DNA of 64,000 nucleotides from Candidatus Latescibacterota bacterium (GTDB lineage: Bacteria > Latescibacterota > UBA2968 > UBA8231): NCBI GenBank assembly GCA_965243025.1, contig CBDETY010000003.1, forward strand, positions 6,112,001 to 6,176,000, given 5' to 3'. Position numbers and translations under genes: made by a program. Below the pieces are notes generated by a model. It was given only the letters and a program-made list of their open reading frames with translations. It did no database searches and had not been told where the DNA came from. Below, piece by piece: positions 9,984 to 22,761 of the stretch. Position 1 is the stretch's first letter, and the number at the start of each line of letters is the position of its first letter.

Positions 9984-11951
9984 TTGTCAGGAGGTGTAGA
10001 AGACCGGCCGGCGTCCGGGGTTTCGCTGCGCGCCCTCGTCATCGGCGCCGCTCTCAGCCTGGCGATCGGCGTGGGAGAGCCCTTCGGTGCCTTCGTCATC
10101 ATGGGCACCCGCATGAGCGGGTTGAACGGTCCCGCCGCGTTCTTCCTGTTCTTCCTGTGGGTGGGTGTGGTCCAGGTCGTGTTGGGGCTCATTCACAGAA
10201 GGCTGGCCCTGGACAAGGGAGAGCTGCTGACCATCTACATCATGATGGTCGTCGCCACGGCGTTCTCGGGTGGCGAGCGCAACGGGTTCTGCCTGATGCT
10301 GTTGGGGTCGACTGCCGGGGTATCCTACCTGGCCAGTCCGGAAAACAACTGGGCGGAACGGGTCCATCCCTACGTGGCCAAGTGGATGGTTCCGCAGGAC
10401 GAGATGGGGATCCGGTGGTTTTTCGAGGGCATGCCGGAGGGCGAGTCGATCCCCTGGGGCATGTGGCTGCCGCCGCTGTTGTGGTGGTTGCTGTTCATGA
10501 CGGCGCTGTGGACGGCGAGCATCTGCGCGATGGTCATCCTTCGCCGCCAGTGGGTGGAACACGAACATCTCATCTATCCCATCACCAAGGTGCCGCTGGC
10601 CATGGTGCAACCGCCGCCGGGCGGTTCGCTGGTGGCGCCTTTCTTCAAGAGCGGCCTGATGTGGGCGGGTCTGTCGCTGTCGTTCGGCCGCGAGAGCCTC
10701 AACGCCCTGAATCACTACTTCCCCATCGTTCCCGTGGTTCCGACCCACTTCGGGCAACTCACGCTGATACCGCGATTCGCCAATGTAGGCTTTTCGCTGA
10801 ACCTGATGATCCTGGGGTTCGCCTATTTCCTCAAGGCGGACGTCATGCTCGGGATGTGGGTTTTCTACGTTCTGCGCCGCCTCGAGGAGGGTGTCCTGCA
10901 CCTGACGGGAGCCGGCATCGGGGAAGCGCTTTCCAACTACGGCGGCGGCGGTGGTGTCAGGGGGATCCTCGCGCACCAGAGCATAGGGGCGATGATCGCG
11001 CTGGTCCTCTTCGGACTGTGGATTTCCCGGGGACATCTGCGGAAGGTGTTCCGCAAGGCCTTCAGAGGGGACGACTCGGTGGACGATGCCGACGAAATCA
11101 TGCCCTACCGCACCGCCGTATGGGGGGTGATCCTCGGGGTGATCGGAATGAGCCTGTGGCTGTGGCGGGCGGGTCTGCCCCTGTGGGCGGGTCTGCTGTT
11201 TCTGTTCGGGGCGCTTGTGACCTTCGTCAGCCTGACGCGCATCATCGCCGAGGCGGGACTGCCGATGGTGTTTCCCCGCAACATCCCCCTGGACTTCGTG
11301 GTCTCCGGAATCGGGGTGCGCTACACGGGGCCGGCGGGGATGGCGGCCCTGGGTCCGACGGTGATATGGACGGAGTCCCTGGCGAGCACGATGATGGCCC
11401 ACACCGCCACCGGGTTGAAGCTGACCGGCGAGATCGCCCATCGCAGGCGCTGGCTGCTGCTGGCGCTGGCGATCGCCATTCTGGTCTCCGTAGTCAGCAC
11501 CTTCTGGATGTCGCTGTCGATCGCATACCGCGAGGGGGGCGTCAACGTAGCGCGTTCCGTCGGTTACCTCCCCGACTTCACCTGGGCGTACGTGGCGAGC
11601 CGGGTCGAGGAGAACGCGGGACCGAACGGGCTGGGTTGGCTCATCCGGTTGGCCGGGGGAGGGGTTATGACCGGTCTGCTTCTCATGCAGCGCCGGTTCC
11701 TGTGGTGGCCGTTGCACCCGCTGGGATTCGTGGTCAGCATGGACCGGGTGATGGACACGGCCTGGTTCCCCGTCTTCCTGGCCTGGACGCTCAAGACGGT
11801 CCTCTTGAAGTACGGCGGCCTCAAAGCGTACCAGGCGCTCATCCCCGTTTTCTACGGGTTGATACTGGGTCAGTTCGTCGCCGGGGGATTCTGGTTGATC
11901 GTCGACTTTTTCACCGGGATGAGGGGTAACGGACTGAGCATGATGTACTGA
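9984..11951 (+). CDS. DUF6785/DUF6784 polytopic membrane protein (putative peptide/OPT-like transporter), copy 1
   Basis: Many TM helices. Motifs LRRQWVEHEHLIYPI, RIIAEAG, WWPLHPLGF, KYGG...FYGLILG. TTG start after GGAGGG. Confidence 0.8.
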   Translation: MSGGVEDRPASGVSLRALVIGAALSLAIGVGEPFGAFVIMGTRMSGLNGPAAFFLFFLWVGVVQVVLGLIHRRLALDKGELLTIYIMMVVATAFSGGERNGFCLMLLGSTAGVSYLASPENNWAERVHPYVAKWMVPQDEMGIRWFFEGMPEGESIPWGMWLPPLLWWLLFMTALWTASICAMVILRRQWVEHEHLIYPITKVPLAMVQPPPGGSLVAPFFKSGLMWAGLSLSFGRESLNALNHYFPIVPVVPTHFGQLTLIPRFANVGFSLNLMILGFAYFLKADVMLGMWVFYVLRRLEEGVLHLTGAGIGEALSNYGGGGGVRGILAHQSIGAMIALVLFGLWISRGHLRKVFRKAFRGDDSVDDADEIMPYRTAVWGVILGVIGMSLWLWRAGLPLWAGLLFLFGALVTFVSLTRIIAEAGLPMVFPRNIPLDFVVSGIGVRYTGPAGMAALGPTVIWTESLASTMMAHTATGLKLTGEIAHRRRWLLLALAIAILVSVVSTFWMSLSIAYREGGVNVARSVGYLPDFTWAYVASRVEENAGPNGLGWLIRLAGGGVMTGLLLMQRRFLWWPLHPLGFVVSMDRVMDTAWFPVFLAWTLKTVLLKYGGLKAYQALIPVFYGLILGQFVAGGFWLIVDFFTGMRGNGLSMMY

Positions 11952-12181
11952 CATGCCGCGATAAAGTTGCTCTGCAGACGAGGCCGGAGTCAGAGACGCC
12001 GGCCGGGCAGCGGTGTCGAGGTACCCGACTGTACCGAATGCCGCGGCGTGGCGGTGAGGTGAATCTTCACCACCGGGCTGGATTGTTGCTTGCGCTCTGT
12101 ATATTCATACCCGAAAGCATTACGCGCCCGTTCTCTTTCGCGTCCGCCCCTGACGAGGGTGAATTCTCCGAAAACAATGCC

Positions 12182-12874
12182 ATGAGATTTGCGGTGACAG
12201 CCCTTCATTTCGGGCTCTGGGCTTTGCTTTCGTTTGGCTGCGGCAGCGATGTGGTCCACACCTCCACGCCGCCTTCTCCGGTCGACCAGGGACAGGGGGA
12301 GGAAGGAGAGGTTTTCATCACCGACCACACCGGAAAAGCATGGGACGTGACCCACGCTGTGGGGAAATACGGCATGGAGCCGTCAATGTTCGGGAACGGT
12401 CTGGGGCCATTTGCCATCAAACCGATAGTGAACGCCCGGATGCTGTCCCCCGGCGACCTGAACTACCCGATCGACAGCCAGGGCATGCTGGTGATCGGGA
12501 CGACCCTGAACGGTTTCACCCGCGCTTACCCCATCGAAATCCTGAGCCGGTTCGAAGTCGCCAACGAGCGCTTCGGGGAGGCGCACGTGGCCGTGGCCTA
12601 CTGACCGCTGGTCGACCTGGCTGCCGTGTACAGCCGAGAAATCGACGGAGAGATCCTGACCCTGAGCGCCAGTGGATGGACCTATCGATCCACGTTCGTG
12701 CTGTACGACTACGAGACCGAAAGCCTGTGGTACCACCTGCCCGGCGAGGATGGCCTGACCTGTATCGGCGGCGCCTACGCCGACCGGAAGCTGACGGAAC
12801 TCCACTCCGTCCTCACCCGCTGGAACCTCTGGAAAGCGGAGTTTCCGGATTCAAGGGTTCTCACGATCCCTTAG
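12182..12874 (+). CDS. DUF3179 family lipoprotein with in-frame TGA (12602-12604), probable selenoprotein
   Basis: ORFs 12038..12604 and 12626..12874 are in the same frame. The join reads RAYPIEILSRFEVANERFGEAHVAVAY-U-PLVDLAAVYSREIDG...SG....TFVLYDYETESLW, a continuous DUF3179 pattern. Lipobox LSFGC. Confidence 0.8.
12605..12648 (+). promoter_or_regulatory. Candidate bacterial SECIS hairpin
   Basis: GTCGA(12611-15)/TCGAC(12642-46) lower stem and GGCTG(12619-23)/CAGCC(12631-35) upper stem, loop CCGTGTA, directly 3' of the UGA. Confidence 0.55.
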
Positions 12875-13045
12875 CGCGCCGCTGAACGGCGCGACAGGGT
12901 CCTGTCTCAGGGGAAACGACACTATCGACAGCTTGCCCGCGGCTTCCGCCTTCGATTGGAGGACGGCGATGGAAGTCCGGTCGGTTGGCGCGATTGCTTC
13001 AACGGCCGGCAAAACCGGGTTTTATCAGGCGATGAGGTCTGAGCC

Positions 13046-14704
13046 ATGAAATGTCCGAAACGGCTCCTGCCCTGTGCGGTGTTGCCGGTGTTGGGGTTGG
13101 CCGGCTGTGACGACAGAAGCCCCACGCAATCCGGCTCAGGCTCCACGGTCCTGGAGGGCGATTTTTCCGTCCGTTCCCAGGAGGACCTGGACCTCCTCGC
13201 GGCTCTTGGGGGGGATTCGTTCGGCATCGCCGGCGATCTCTCGGTCGAGGATTCTCCTTTCACCACGCTCGAGGCCCTCGAGAATCTCACCGGCATAGGC
13301 GGGAACCTGTCCATAGGCAGCTTCGGCGCCGGCAACGCGGAGCTGACCAGTCTGGCAGGTCTCGGGAATCTCACCCGCATCGGCGGGTACCTGTCCATAT
13401 TCGGCAACGTCTCCCTGACCAGCCTGGCGGGGCTGGAGGGTGTCACCGGCATCGGCGGGGGTTTGTTCATCAGGAACACTTCCCTGACCAGCCTGTCAGG
13501 GCTCGAAAACGTCTCCGGCATCGGCGGGAGGGTGAAGGTCGTCAACAACGATGCCCTGACCAGCCTGTCGGGGCTCGACAATCTCACCCGCATCGGCGGG
13601 TACCTGTCCATCGTCGGCAATGATTCCCTGACCAGCCTGACAGGGCTCGGAAACCTCACCAGCTTCGAGGGGGACCTGATTGTCAACGACAACCCGGCGC
13701 TTACCAGCCTGGCGGGGCTGGAAAAGATCACGAGCATCGACGGGGACGCGTTTGACCGGGAATCCCGGACGGGTCCGGGCGTGTCGATCCTTGACAACGA
13801 TGCACTTGCCAGCCTGTCGGGGCTCGACAATCTCACCCGCATCGGCGGGGACTTGTGCATCGGCAAGGTGCGCGAGGGCAACCCTGCGTTGACCAGCCTG
13901 TCGGGGCTCGACAACCTCGCCGACGTCGGCGGGAGTTTGACCATCTCCCACAACCCCGCACTGGCCAGCCTGTCGGGGCTCGGGAATCTCGCCCGCATCG
14001 GCGGAGTCCTGTCCGTGTTCAGCAGCGCCGCCCTGACCGACCTGTCAGGGCTCGAGAACCTCGCCGGCATCGGTGGCGTCTGGCTTACCGGCAATCCGGC
14101 GCTGACCAGCCTGTCAGGGCTCGAGACGCTCACCAGCGTCGGCGGATTCCTGTCTCTGGCCAACAACTCCGCCCTGAGCAGCCTGACGGGACTCGACAAT
14201 ATCACCGGCATCGACGGGATGCTGCAGATACTGCACAACGACGCGCTGACCGGCCTGGCACCGCTCGGGAACGTCACCCGGGTCGGGGGCGATCTGAAAG
14301 TCGGCGGCAATCACCTGCTGGCCAACCTGGCAGGGTTCGAGAGCGTCACCGGCATCGGCGGGGACCTGTCCATCTGGTACACCGGCCTGACGAGCCTGGC
14401 AGGGCTCGGGAACCTCGCCACCATCGGCGCGGACCTGTCGATCGGCGGCAATGACGCCCTGGTCAGCCTGGCAGGGCTCGAAAGTCTCACCGACATTGGC
14501 GGGAGTCTCGCAATCGGCGACCGCCGTACCGGCAACACCGCCCTCGCCAGCCTGGCAGGCCTCGAGAATCTCACCCGCATCGGCGGCGACTTGTCCATCC
14601 ACGGCAATGGAGCGCTGACCGATTCGTCGGCCCGGGCCTTCGCCGACAGACTGGTGGCAAGCGGGTTCACGGGCAGCGTGACGATCAGCGGCAATCAGCG
14701 ATGA
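13046..14704 (+). CDS. Receptor L-domain/leucine-rich-repeat surface lipoprotein
   Basis: Lipobox LAGC, then ~18 repeats of ~24 aa with consensus LTSL.GL.NLT.IGG.L.I..N.A. Confidence 0.85.
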   Translation: MKCPKRLLPCAVLPVLGLAGCDDRSPTQSGSGSTVLEGDFSVRSQEDLDLLAALGGDSFGIAGDLSVEDSPFTTLEALENLTGIGGNLSIGSFGAGNAELTSLAGLGNLTRIGGYLSIFGNVSLTSLAGLEGVTGIGGGLFIRNTSLTSLSGLENVSGIGGRVKVVNNDALTSLSGLDNLTRIGGYLSIVGNDSLTSLTGLGNLTSFEGDLIVNDNPALTSLAGLEKITSIDGDAFDRESRTGPGVSILDNDALASLSGLDNLTRIGGDLCIGKVREGNPALTSLSGLDNLADVGGSLTISHNPALASLSGLGNLARIGGVLSVFSSAALTDLSGLENLAGIGGVWLTGNPALTSLSGLETLTSVGGFLSLANNSALSSLTGLDNITGIDGMLQILHNDALTGLAPLGNVTRVGGDLKVGGNHLLANLAGFESVTGIGGDLSIWYTGLTSLAGLGNLATIGADLSIGGNDALVSLAGLESLTDIGGSLAIGDRRTGNTALASLAGLENLTRIGGDLSIHGNGALTDSSARAFADRLVASGFTGSVTISGNQR

Positions 14705-20793: not shown

Positions 20794-22761
20794 CTAGAAA
20801 TCCATCGCTATTTGATTGCCCGTCATCCCGGTGAAATAGTCCACTATGAGCCAGAATCCCCCGGCGACGAACTGGCCCAGGATCAACCCGTAGAAAAGGG
20901 GGATGAGCGAGCGGTACCCTCTGAGGCCGCCATACTTCAGAAGGACCGACTTGATCGACCACGCCACGAAGACCGGAAACCAGGCCGTGTCCATAACCCT
21001 GTCCATGCTGACCACGAAACCGAGAGGATGCAACGGCCACCACAGAAAGCGGCGCTGCAGGATCAGCAGGCCAGCCATCACTCCCCCTCCGGTCAGCCGG
21101 ATGAGCCAGCCCAGCCCGTTCGGTCCCGCGTTCTCGTCGATCCTGCGCCCCACGTACTCCCAGGTGTACTGGGGCAGATAGCGCGAGGGACCATCCACAT
21201 TGATGCTCCCCTCCCGGTAGGCTATCGACATCGACATCCAGAACGTGCTGACCGCGGAAACCCCGATGGCGATGGCGATCGCCAGCAGCAACCAGCGCTT
21301 GCGATGCGCGATCTCCCCGGTCAGCTTCAGTCCCGTGGCGGTATGCGCCATCATCGTGCTCGCCAGGGATTCCGTCCAGATCACCGTCGGACCCAGCGCC
21401 GCTATCCCGGCAGGCCCTATGAACCGCGCCCCGATCCCGGAGATCACGAAGTCCAGGGGGATATTGCGGGGAAACACCATCGGCAATCCCGCCTCGGCGA
21501 TGATGCGCGTCAGGCTGATGAAGGTCACGAGCGCCCCGAACAGGAACAGCGGCCCCACCCACAGGGGGAGGCCCGCCCGCCACAGCCAAACGCACATCCA
21601 GGCCACTCCGAGGATCACCCCCCAGACGGCGGTGCGGTAGGACATGATCTCGTCGGAATCGTCCACCGACGGGTCCCCCCTGAACGCCTTGCGGAACACC
21701 TCCCGCAGGTGCCCCCGGGCGATCCAGAGCCCGAAGAGCACCAGGGAGATCATCGCACCTATGCTCTGATGCGCCAGCAACCCGGTTACGCCGCCGCCGC
21801 CGCCATAGTTGGAAAGGGATTCCCCGATGCCCTGCCCCGTGAAGGTCAGCACACCCTCCTCCAGGCGCCGCAGCAGAGTGAATACCCACATCCCCAACAT
21901 CACGTCCGGTTTGAGGAAATACGCAAACCCCAGGATCATCAGGTTCAGCGAGAAGCCCGCACTCGCGGCGCCCCGCAACAGGGTCACGTGCCCGAGGTGT
22001 CTCGGAACCACGGGAACGAAGGGGTAGTAATGGTTCAGGGCATTCAGGCTCTCGCGGCCGAACGTCAGCAGCAGTCCCACCCACATCAGGGGGCTCCTGA
22101 AGAAAGGCGCCACCAGCGAACCGCCGGATGGCGGCTCTGCCATCGCCAGGGGGACCTTGGTGATCGGGTAGATCAGATGTTCGTGCTCGACCCACTGGCG
22201 GCGGAGAATCACCATCGTGCAAATGCTCGTCATCCACAACGCGGTCATGAACACGAACCACCAGAACAGCGGCGGCAACCAGACACCCCAGGGAATGGAC
22301 TCGCCAGCCGGCAGCCCTTCGAAGAACCAACGGATACCCGTCTCGTCGCGAGGGACCATCCAGTCCGCCACGTAGGGATGGACCCGATCCGCCCAGCCGT
22401 TCTCCGGCGTCGCCAGGTAAGACACCCCGGCAGCGGACCCCAGCAGCATGAAGCAGAATCCGTTGCGCTCTCCCCCCGAGAAAGCCGTGGCGACGACCAT
22501 CATGATGTAAATGGTCAACAGCTCCCCCTTGCCCAGGACCAGCCTGCGGTGAATGACCCCCAACAGTACCTGGACAACGCCCACCCACAGGAAGAACAGG
22601 AAGAAGGCGGCAGGGCCGTTCAACGAGCTCAGATGGCTGCCCATGACGACACGCGCGCCGTAGGGCTCGCCCACACCGATCAACAGACTCAGCCCCGCGC
22701 CGATGACCAGCGAGCGCGGCGTCACCCCCGGCGCCGACCGCTTCTGTGTTCCCCCTGACAA
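20794..22761 (-). CDS. DUF6785/DUF6784 membrane transporter-like protein, copy 2
   Basis: Same length (655 aa) as 9984..11951, with long identical blocks. TTG start after GGAG. Confidence 0.8.
   Translation of the reverse strand: MSGGTQKRSAPGVTPRSLVIGAGLSLLIGVGEPYGARVVMGSHLSSLNGPAAFFLFFLWVGVVQVLLGVIHRRLVLGKGELLTIYIMMVVATAFSGGERNGFCFMLLGSAAGVSYLATPENGWADRVHPYVADWMVPRDETGIRWFFEGLPAGESIPWGVWLPPLFWWFVFMTALWMTSICTMVILRRQWVEHEHLIYPITKVPLAMAEPPSGGSLVAPFFRSPLMWVGLLLTFGRESLNALNHYYPFVPVVPRHLGHVTLLRGAASAGFSLNLMILGFAYFLKPDVMLGMWVFTLLRRLEEGVLTFTGQGIGESLSNYGGGGGVTGLLAHQSIGAMISLVLFGLWIARGHLREVFRKAFRGDPSVDDSDEIMSYRTAVWGVILGVAWMCVWLWRAGLPLWVGPLFLFGALVTFISLTRIIAEAGLPMVFPRNIPLDFVISGIGARFIGPAGIAALGPTVIWTESLASTMMAHTATGLKLTGEIAHRKRWLLLAIAIAIGVSAVSTFWMSMSIAYREGSINVDGPSRYLPQYTWEYVGRRIDENAGPNGLGWLIRLTGGGVMAGLLILQRRFLWWPLHPLGFVVSMDRVMDTAWFPVFVAWSIKSVLLKYGGLRGYRSLIPLFYGLILGQFVAGGFWLIVDYFTGMTGNQIAMDF

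Follow-up and report, generated by a model that had tools for sequence, protein, structure and literature searches.

The UGA codon at positions 12602 to 12604 of the DNA analyzed here is almost certainly read as selenocysteine (Sec), as predicted by comparison with related sequences, and the two open reading frames (ORFs) on either side of it would then form one gene for a DUF3179 lipoprotein. This DNA, referred to below as the window, is a 64,000-nucleotide stretch of a Candidatus Latescibacterota genome. Recoding of the codon had been proposed in an initial annotation and was supported here by the Sec machinery of the genome, by conservation of the TGA, by its equivalence to a Cys codon in relatives, and by a constrained SECIS element. 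The features discussed below are as follows, with the basis of each in parentheses.

12182 to 12874, + strand: single-repeat DUF3179 (seleno)lipoprotein of 230 amino acids, one gene read through UGA (frame, Pfam, relatives)
12182 to 12241, + strand: predicted lipoprotein signal peptide ending at Cys20, L-S-F-G-C, with LSSGC in relatives (sequence inspection, conservation)
12311 to 12481, + strand: conserved N-terminal extension, residues 44 to 100, I-x-D-x-T-G-K-x-W-D-V-T-H-A, mostly outside the Pfam match (alignment, model)
12509 to 12823, + strand: predicted Rieske-like beta core, residues 110 to 214, with no Fe-S ligand motifs (AF2, VIA alignment)
12602 to 12604, + strand: UGA codon for U141, at the end of predicted strand 134 to 141 (aligns with Cys of Cys relatives; conserved TGA)
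12611 to 12646, + strand: outer limits of the minimum free energy (MFE) two-stem hairpin, with a weakly conserved lower stem, 12611 to 12615/12642 to 12646 (MFE, conservation)
12618 to 12636, + strand: SECIS apical stem-loop with a 6-bp stem, loop 12624 to 12630, and invariant GU at 12626 to 12627 (covariation, synonymous constraint)
12761 to 12763, + strand: second Cys, C194 (G-L-T-C-I-G-G), variable in Sec forms (alignment)

One reading frame spans the UGA codon

The ATG at 12182, the TGA, and the TAG at 12872 to 12874 all lie in one frame of the window sequence. Translation table 11 gives two ORFs, one stopping at 12604 and the other covering 12626 to 12874, and the read-through product is 230 amino acids long, with U141 in the context H-V-A-V-A-Y-U-P-L-V-D. 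The initial annotation had described two same-frame ORFs parted by this TGA and a product of about 230 residues, and both were borne out, as was the continuation of DUF3179-like sequence across the codon: the PF11376 (DUF3179) profile matched residues 84 to 228 with a score of 112.7 bits, compared to a gathering cutoff of 27. An NCBIfam search returned no family for the 230-residue protein. Relatives share the same start Met and in most cases stop 88 to 100 codons past the TGA.

Export as a lipoprotein, as proposed initially, is supported by Cys20, which follows a hydrophobic stretch and is kept in at least 90% of 36 aligned rows. Because this Cys is nearly invariant, a lipoprotein is indicated, and the U141 protein is very likely a lipid-anchored envelope lipoprotein, with lipidation predicted from these residues. 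The lipobox, judged by inspection, is slightly noncanonical, and residues 1 to 40 have low pLDDT values in the AF2 model. We rejected the possibility that the conserved N-terminal extension could be what is left of the second DUF3179 repeat, since none of 90 long proteins reached 5 bits, equal to the reversed controls, and a faint D-x-x-G-x-x-W likeness is the most that the two share.

The Tyr codon directly 5′ of the UGA (12599 to 12601) is TAC in 78 of the 80 sequences that have Tyr there, and other Tyr codons are mixed, a synonymous constraint on the codon that precedes the recoded UGA. A related strain in run X6 differs at window positions 12600 to 12601, having TGG instead of TAC just before the UGA, and protein P0003, which ends in V-A-W, matches this variant.

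The genome encodes the Sec machinery, and the UGA is conserved

We searched the source genome for the four genes whose presence the initial annotation had proposed to check, and all were present: selA (533.7 bits), selB (320.2 bits), and selD (361.8 bits), each above its curated cutoff, and a tRNA-Sec gene (selC). The selD gene carries an in-frame TGA of its own.

A match to the gene was found in 33 of 41 genomes searched. All 31 matches with E values below 1e-30, which came from 16 of these genomes including the source genome, contain one TGA. Among the distinct hits covering the site, 37 of 64 have TGA, and the others are Cys codons of long forms or hits to the second repeat. A sample of 121 genomes of the phylum gave matches at E values of 1e-45 or lower in 14 genomes, all of them in the source genome's own family, and each of the 29 matches carries one TGA. 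From 338 confirmed metagenome stretches, 79 loci were kept, and TGA accounts for 79 of their 83 distinct site hits. These counts are not independent of each other, since the genome, phylum, and metagenome sets overlap and their members are kin. In an alignment of homologs, the TGA of single-repeat DUF3179 genes lines up with Cys in the Cys forms and with TGA in the Sec relatives, a comparison that the initial annotation had suggested, and selA was detected in 15 of the 16 TGA-carrying genomes, with the single miss in a genome that is 81% complete. The TGA is thus kept across 16 genomes and metagenome contigs rather than being unique to the source assembly. A contig from run X3, which may be the source sample, spans the stretch with no differences; sponge metagenome X6 holds a strain that is 90 to 99% similar, and a database match with 63% identity is titled Ca. 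Latescibacterota.

The initial annotation had also noted that elevated dN/dS downstream of the TGA would indicate a pseudogene. Median pN/pS relative to the query was instead 0.38 upstream of the TGA and 0.15 downstream (93 uncorrected, nonindependent pairs), and the lower downstream value argues against a pseudogene. A pattern heuristic placed the end of 81 of the 231 retrieved proteins immediately ahead of the site. Members of this branch are split or truncated by gene callers, so that an exported selenoprotein common in one bacterial family has been hidden, and it also occurs in many metagenome contigs.

A conserved apical stem-loop follows the UGA

The MFE hairpin has a lower stem beginning at 12611, 6 nt past the TGA, and a loop beginning at 12624, 19 nt past it, with an energy of −14.4 kcal/mol; this is where the initial annotation had placed a two-stem hairpin. 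Taken by itself, this energy does not stand out from chance (z = −0.8 to −1.8), which rules it out as proof, and a loose pattern of UGA plus hairpin has 823 matches in the genome. As hairpin energy is unremarkable, the case for recoding rests on comparison. A search of Rfam gave four chance matches, none over the TGA or the hairpin.

The covariation analysis suggested at the outset supported the upper stem and gave a weak result for the lower one. Pairing in the lower stem holds for 65% of cells (36 genome sequences), and RNAalifold drops this stem from its consensus, keeping the upper one only; we do not regard the lower stem as a conserved element. Positions of the upper stem are numbered here from the U of the UGA. 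In the conserved register, U17 pairs with G35 in 104 of 105 distinct sequences, unlike the U17-A36 pair of the MFE structure. Among the same 105 sequences, pair 19:33 covaries (G-C in 75 and A-U in 25) and pair 20:32 is C-G in 101 and G-C in 4. None of 500 shuffles of the 36 genome sequences attained the observed covariation score; for two other measures, 60 and 63 of 500 shuffles did, which is not significant.

Codon usage over the hairpin is constrained as well. Among 96 gap-free Sec sequences of 108 collected, normalized synonymous entropy was 0.10 at codons +6 to +10, compared to 0.86 upstream and 0.84 downstream, with, for example, GTG in 96 of 96 and GCC in 87 of 87 sequences. All five stem pairs are present in 73 of 77 TGA copies and none of the five in the Cys single-repeat paralog at L072:5295, which adjoins a TGA paralog; this control for stem loss rests on the one Cys single-repeat paralog with DNA. 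The loop GU, at positions 25 and 26, is invariant in 77 of 77 copies, and its G is third in the 7-nt MFE loop unless positions 23 and 29 pair (C-A in 96 and U-A in 5 of 105 sequences). The corresponding GU lies at positions 22 to 27 in selD and in three further genes of the genome that likely encode selenoproteins. The 7-nt loop, the 6-bp stem, the 19-nt spacing, and the energy fit the bacterial SECIS consensus given in PMC13188914 (loop of 3 to 9 nt, stem of 4 to 16 bp, spacing of 16 to 37 nt, and MFE of −7.5 kcal/mol or lower). The SECIS-like hairpin proposed 3′ of the UGA is therefore supported in its upper stem, which is both conserved and covarying.

Other likely in-frame UGA codons with hairpins occur in the genome at G000:C3:3791342 (+), 5085897 (+), 2722520 (−), and 5910646 (+). 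By motif reading, two of these four genes are AhpC/redoxin-like (F-Y-R-G-x-x-U-G), one is SelW-like (Y-C-T-S-U-G-Y), and one is Cys rich.

Absence of the +3 Cys is a trait of the single-repeat branch

We surveyed the motif in 140 retrieved proteins covering the site. The initial annotation gave the usual form of DUF3179 correctly as one with a C-x-x-C motif, with 82 of 100 long proteins having Cys at +3. Its description of U-P-L-V as unusual does not hold within the branch to which the U141 protein belongs: besides the query, none of 39 single-repeat-like proteins has the +3 Cys, and 22 of these are Cys forms. The remaining site residues are Trp in 7 proteins, which are probably cases of UGA read as Trp by gene callers, and other residues in 10, and the U141 site is therefore not indispensable. 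The +3 residue in 32 genome Sec forms is V in 25 and A in 7, with V in the query. Since the +3 Cys is missing in Cys and Sec forms alike, its absence is a trait of the short branch and not specific to Sec. The earlier statement that the protein lacks a second Cys thus stands for the +3 position and fails elsewhere, as C194 is present in the mature protein; 14 of 22 Cys forms have it, as do 12 of the 32 genome Sec forms.

In a tree of 91 core sequences and 134 columns, which has many open forks and was built without non-Cys short forms or rows that are partial or frameshifted, 47 single-repeat lipoproteins lie on one branch with support of 100/94, with Sec and Cys forms intermixed. By these sequence comparisons, the single-repeat U/C-P-L-V/A lipoproteins form a separate DUF3179 branch. 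An exception is the short Sec protein L021_940, which falls among the long forms. Long DUF3179 proteins match profile positions 1 to 292, compared to positions 9 to 148 only for the U141 protein, and the second DUF3179 gene of the source genome is a full-length two-repeat Cys form with C-P-L-T. Tandem paralogs (two to three copies) are common.

Distant Sec forms of DUF3179 were seen at L027:1615, L026:1758, L058:6381, L059:6365, L021:940, and L091:1255, with the motifs UPLC, UPLA, UPIN, UPMV, and UPIV and variant SECIS stems; Sec is found in both the long and the short DUF3179 branches. At L072:69-5567, genes for a multiheme cytochrome, a large unnamed protein, and an Fe-S/FAD oxidoreductase are followed downstream by a tandem pair of Sec and Cys single-repeat paralogs. 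At L025:304-2166 (−) in genome G013, a Sec DUF3179 frame continues without a stop into arsS, either as a fusion or through an assembly frameshift.

Neighboring genes and history of the locus

The gene shares its strand with the neighbors on either side, a DUF6785/6784 membrane gene (230-nt gap) and an LRR/receptor-L lipoprotein gene (171-nt gap); the latter is followed by a CRTAC1/ASPIC gene. Two similar membrane genes of the DUF6785/DUF6784 type occur in the window, at 9984 to 11951 (by Pfam) and 20794 to 22761 (by visible similarity). We surveyed the neighborhoods of 21 other clusters, including 5 short loci, and of the 79 metagenome loci, 33 of which are 4.5 kb or longer. The 21 clusters contain a gene for a barrel-like protein of about 300 amino acids in 10, arsS in 7, DUF255-thioredoxin in 6, DUF6785 in 6, an FAD/4Fe-4S oxidoreductase in 4, LRR in 3, and CRTAC in 3, and the metagenome loci contain the barrel gene in 20, DUF255 in 9, arsS in 6, and neither LRR nor CRTAC in any. 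The link to the LRR and CRTAC1 genes that had been suggested initially is thus local, found in 3 of 21 other clusters and 0 of 79 metagenome loci, many of which are short. Cotranscription with these genes is possible and is not a conserved trait. A scan of 11900 to 13100 found no promoter or terminator, which is uninformative at expected numbers of 0.2 and 0.8. Contigs from RNA run X20 (share of 0.11, related strain) cover 12631 to 12889 and 12978 to 13107, with no bridge between them and none over the TGA, and run X5 has a hole at 12563 to 12623; neither run demonstrates transcription of the gene or cotranscription.

The barrel-like gene is the most frequent neighbor of the DUF3179 genes. Examples at L041:7684-8595 (−), L052:5456-6385 (−), and L054:7391-8308 (+) encode exported, unnamed proteins of about 300 amino acids with G-A-W after the signal peptide and a weak link to PF13557 (MetA-pathway barrel); a single-sequence fold had a pLDDT of 32 and was unusable. 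A genome of the same genus has the order paralog-barrel-paralog at the same site. Compared to L041:9578-8775 (−) and L041:7560-6445 (−), the locus (window positions 12045 to 12181) has the appearance of a deletion between two tandem paralogs; the upstream DNA of the window matches the region upstream of the first paralog (74% over 836 nt), and the window gene matches the second paralog (90%). Because the upstream DNA corresponds to the first paralog and the gene to the second, the window copy has likely lost one Sec paralog and the barrel gene by deletion. The best barrel-like match in the source genome lies elsewhere and is 39% identical.

The arsS, DUF255, and oxidoreductase genes of the genome adjoin its two-repeat Cys paralog, about 0.7 Mb from the U141 gene. 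This cluster, at G000:C3:5412723-5420415 (L139), encodes a metallo-beta-lactamase-fold hydrolase, an FAD/4Fe-4S oxidoreductase, a NapH-like Fe-S membrane protein, ArsS, a DUF255-thioredoxin, and the two-repeat Cys DUF3179 protein with a FlgD-Ig-like tail that is seen in relatives. In other genera, Sec short forms sit in clusters of this kind.

A Rieske-like fold without a cluster is predicted

An AF2 model built from 36 sequences had a pLDDT of 88 and a pTM of 0.79. In a VIA search, the best match had a Z score of 7.0 and an rmsd of 2.8 over 92 residues, within residues 110 to 214 of the model. Rieske-type chains fill ranks 1 to 44 (Z scores of 7.0 to 3.9), including a few that lack Rieske in the title and that we take to be of this type, and the first unrelated row has a Z score of 3.4. 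The similarity to Rieske proteins is modest, since a VIA Z score below 8 may mean no more than a common arrangement. No match was obtained with Foldseek at E values of 0.001 or lower, sequence searches of the PDB gave no matches with either the protein or the profile, and HHalign gave a probability of 0.5% against seven Rieske domains of the source genome. An Atlas search with a natural Cys relative returned DUF3179 clusters only and no structure. The C-x-H and C-x-x-H cluster ligand boxes are absent from the sequence and the alignment, and the locus has no match to PF00355. The U141 protein probably has a Rieske-like beta fold without a cluster, as far as the model can be trusted.

In a by-eye mapping that used this weak register to Rieske proteins and the predicted strands, U141 would occupy the turn of the beta3-beta4 hairpin, at a distance from the vestigial cluster site. 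In the same model-based register, E153-I-D and D176-Y-E-T would stand at the two ligand-box positions, and C194 would correspond to the non-ligand T-G-x-C position of Rieske proteins. Should this register hold, the protein would have no cluster, and C194 would not be a neighbor of U141.

Possible functions of the U141 protein

On balance, we favor the view that the U141 protein is a lipid-anchored, cluster-less Rieske-like selenoprotein whose single, presumably exposed selenol would act as a redox nucleophile, to be reduced again in trans by a partner protein. The redox role of U141 itself is put forward tentatively. Insertion of Sec by SelB and a SECIS element is an established mechanism, with fdhF of E. 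coli as its prototype, and SelB would here bind the GU loop 22 to 23 nt past the UGA and insert Sec in the same way. The protein would then be exported and lipidated at Cys20, and its selenolate would attack a disulfide or another oxidized substrate in the periplasm or at the cell surface. As there is no +3 Cys, resolution of U141 would come in trans, from either an envelope redoxin or the C194 of a second chain, with the DUF255-thioredoxin or ResA-type genes adjoining relatives as candidates for the redoxin. Redox genes are found next to relatives in the form of DUF255-thioredoxin and FAD/4Fe-4S oxidoreductase (6 and 4 of the 21 clusters), although not next to the window copy, and most prokaryotic selenoproteins are described as redox proteins in the excerpted text of PMC1976440.

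As the main alternative, the lone selenol might bind a soft metalloid or metal, such as As(III), methylarsenite, Hg, or Cu, making the lipoprotein a capture or hand-over partner of an outer-membrane barrel within an arsenic-handling module. We consider this unlikely but deserving of serious weighing. The frequency of the barrel-like gene, with its weak link to PF13557, points in this direction, as do the occurrence of arsS (TIGR04167, over the cutoff) in 7 of 21 clusters and 6 of 79 loci, the arsenosugar arsM gene (NF038099) that flanks two-repeat Sec forms in L056 and L057, the position of the genome's own arsS about 3 kb from the two-repeat Cys paralog, and the absence of a resolving +3 Cys throughout the branch. 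However, the window copy has lost its barrel gene, with the closest barrel-like match of the genome distant in both sequence and location, carriers such as G006, G014, and G021 (85 to 97% complete) have no arsS match, neighborhood is not function, and the model of the barrel-like protein, with a pLDDT of 32, does not confirm a barrel fold. Binding of As(III) also usually needs two to three thiols. A broader scenario, which we regard as speculative and improbable, would have DUF3179 derive from a Rieske fold that lost its cluster and gained a Sec or Cys nucleophile on the opposite hairpin, with the single-repeat Sec lipoproteins serving as capture subunits of an undescribed envelope system (lipoprotein and outer-membrane barrel together with ArsS, DUF255-thioredoxin, and Fe-S oxidoreductase) for the movement or reduction of (organo)arsenic in bacteria that live in the sea or in association with sponges.

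We give little credence to an explanation in which the Rieske-like scaffold is chiefly a binding or structural surface lipoprotein and Sec or Cys at 141 is accessory, for example bonding to C194 or to a second copy. It would account for the 10 of 39 single-repeat-like relatives that lack Cys or Trp at the site and keep the rest, 7 of which still have Cys at 194, and it is compatible with the common tandem paralogs. However, C194 has been lost in 20 of 32 genome Sec forms, and the UGA and a tightly constrained SECIS are kept in more than 100 distinct sequences, which argues for selection for selenium itself. It is hardly credible that the TGA represents a genuine stop or a mistake of assembly, with a pseudogene or split gene as the result: the nonsignificant hairpin energy and the many database products ending at the site are outweighed by the conservation of the TGA in 16 genomes and in dozens of contigs from metagenomes, by the SECIS constraint and the stronger purifying selection downstream, and by the X3 contig without differences, even if X3 is possibly the source sample.

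Comparison with known selenoproteins and Rieske proteins

DUF3179 (PF11376) is listed as a selenoprotein family with the motif UxxC/T in the tables of PMC9312934 and PMC13188914, where the entry is credited to Zhang and Gladyshev 2007 (PMC1976440), and the initial statement that some members are annotated as selenoproteins agrees with these tables. The excerpted text of PMC1976440 names its new families OS_HP1 and so on, and a DUF3179 gene appears in the accessible part of PMC9230427 solely as a table entry. An Atlas cluster has been automatically named "DUF3179 domain-containing (Seleno)protein." Searches of Creative Commons papers in PMC and of bioRxiv found no paper stating a single-repeat UxxV/A form or a cluster-less Rieske fold with the barrel/arsS neighborhood, and nothing relevant on a Rieske-like selenoprotein or a link between ArsS or arsenosugars and a selenoprotein.

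Several known systems resemble the U141 protein in part. Rieske [2Fe-2S] chains (8hn2_B, 3dqy_A, and 3gce_A) and the NirD-like chain 3c0d_A are like the predicted topology of residues 110 to 214, with Z scores of 6 to 7 and rmsd values of 2.6 to 3.9. In contrast to them, the U141 protein has neither ligand box, shares 3 to 13% identity, and has no profile-level similarity; judged from the model, it is at most built on a Rieske-like scaffold and is not a Rieske protein. It also differs from the thioredoxin-fold UxxC redoxins, having neither a UxxC motif nor a thioredoxin Pfam match. Its SECIS agrees with the bacterial SelB/SECIS consensus, as far as PMC13188914 details it, in stem, loop size, spacing, and energy, and departs from bacterial SECIS elements in that the loop G is third in the MFE structure, not first or second, unless C23-A29 closes.

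The closest counterparts are the Cys-type single-repeat DUF3179 lipoproteins (P0024, P0027, P0087, and L072:4794-5567), which are about 45 to 55% identical to the U141 protein and have the same length, signal Cys, C-P-L-V, and G-L-T-C-I; they differ in having a Cys codon for the UGA and, in the one copy with DNA, no SECIS stem. Typical DUF3179 proteins have two repeats, and the U141 protein covers about the first half of their profile. Compared to the DUF3179 selenoproteins catalogued in the tables cited above, it belongs to the same Pfam family and has Sec at the same position (the first Cys of C-P-L-x) and a SECIS directly 3′ of the UGA. It differs from them in having U-P-L-V/A, with V at +3, in place of UxxC/T, as well as its own N-terminal extension, a lipoprotein Cys, and a place on the separate branch supported at 100/94. 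The gene is thus a variant within a known selenoprotein family, with no new recoding principle and no new selenoprotein family. Its single-repeat UxxV/A form broadens the catalogued UxxC/T motif, and the predicted cluster-less Rieske fold, together with the recurring barrel/arsS neighborhood, may offer a testable handle on this uncharacterized family.
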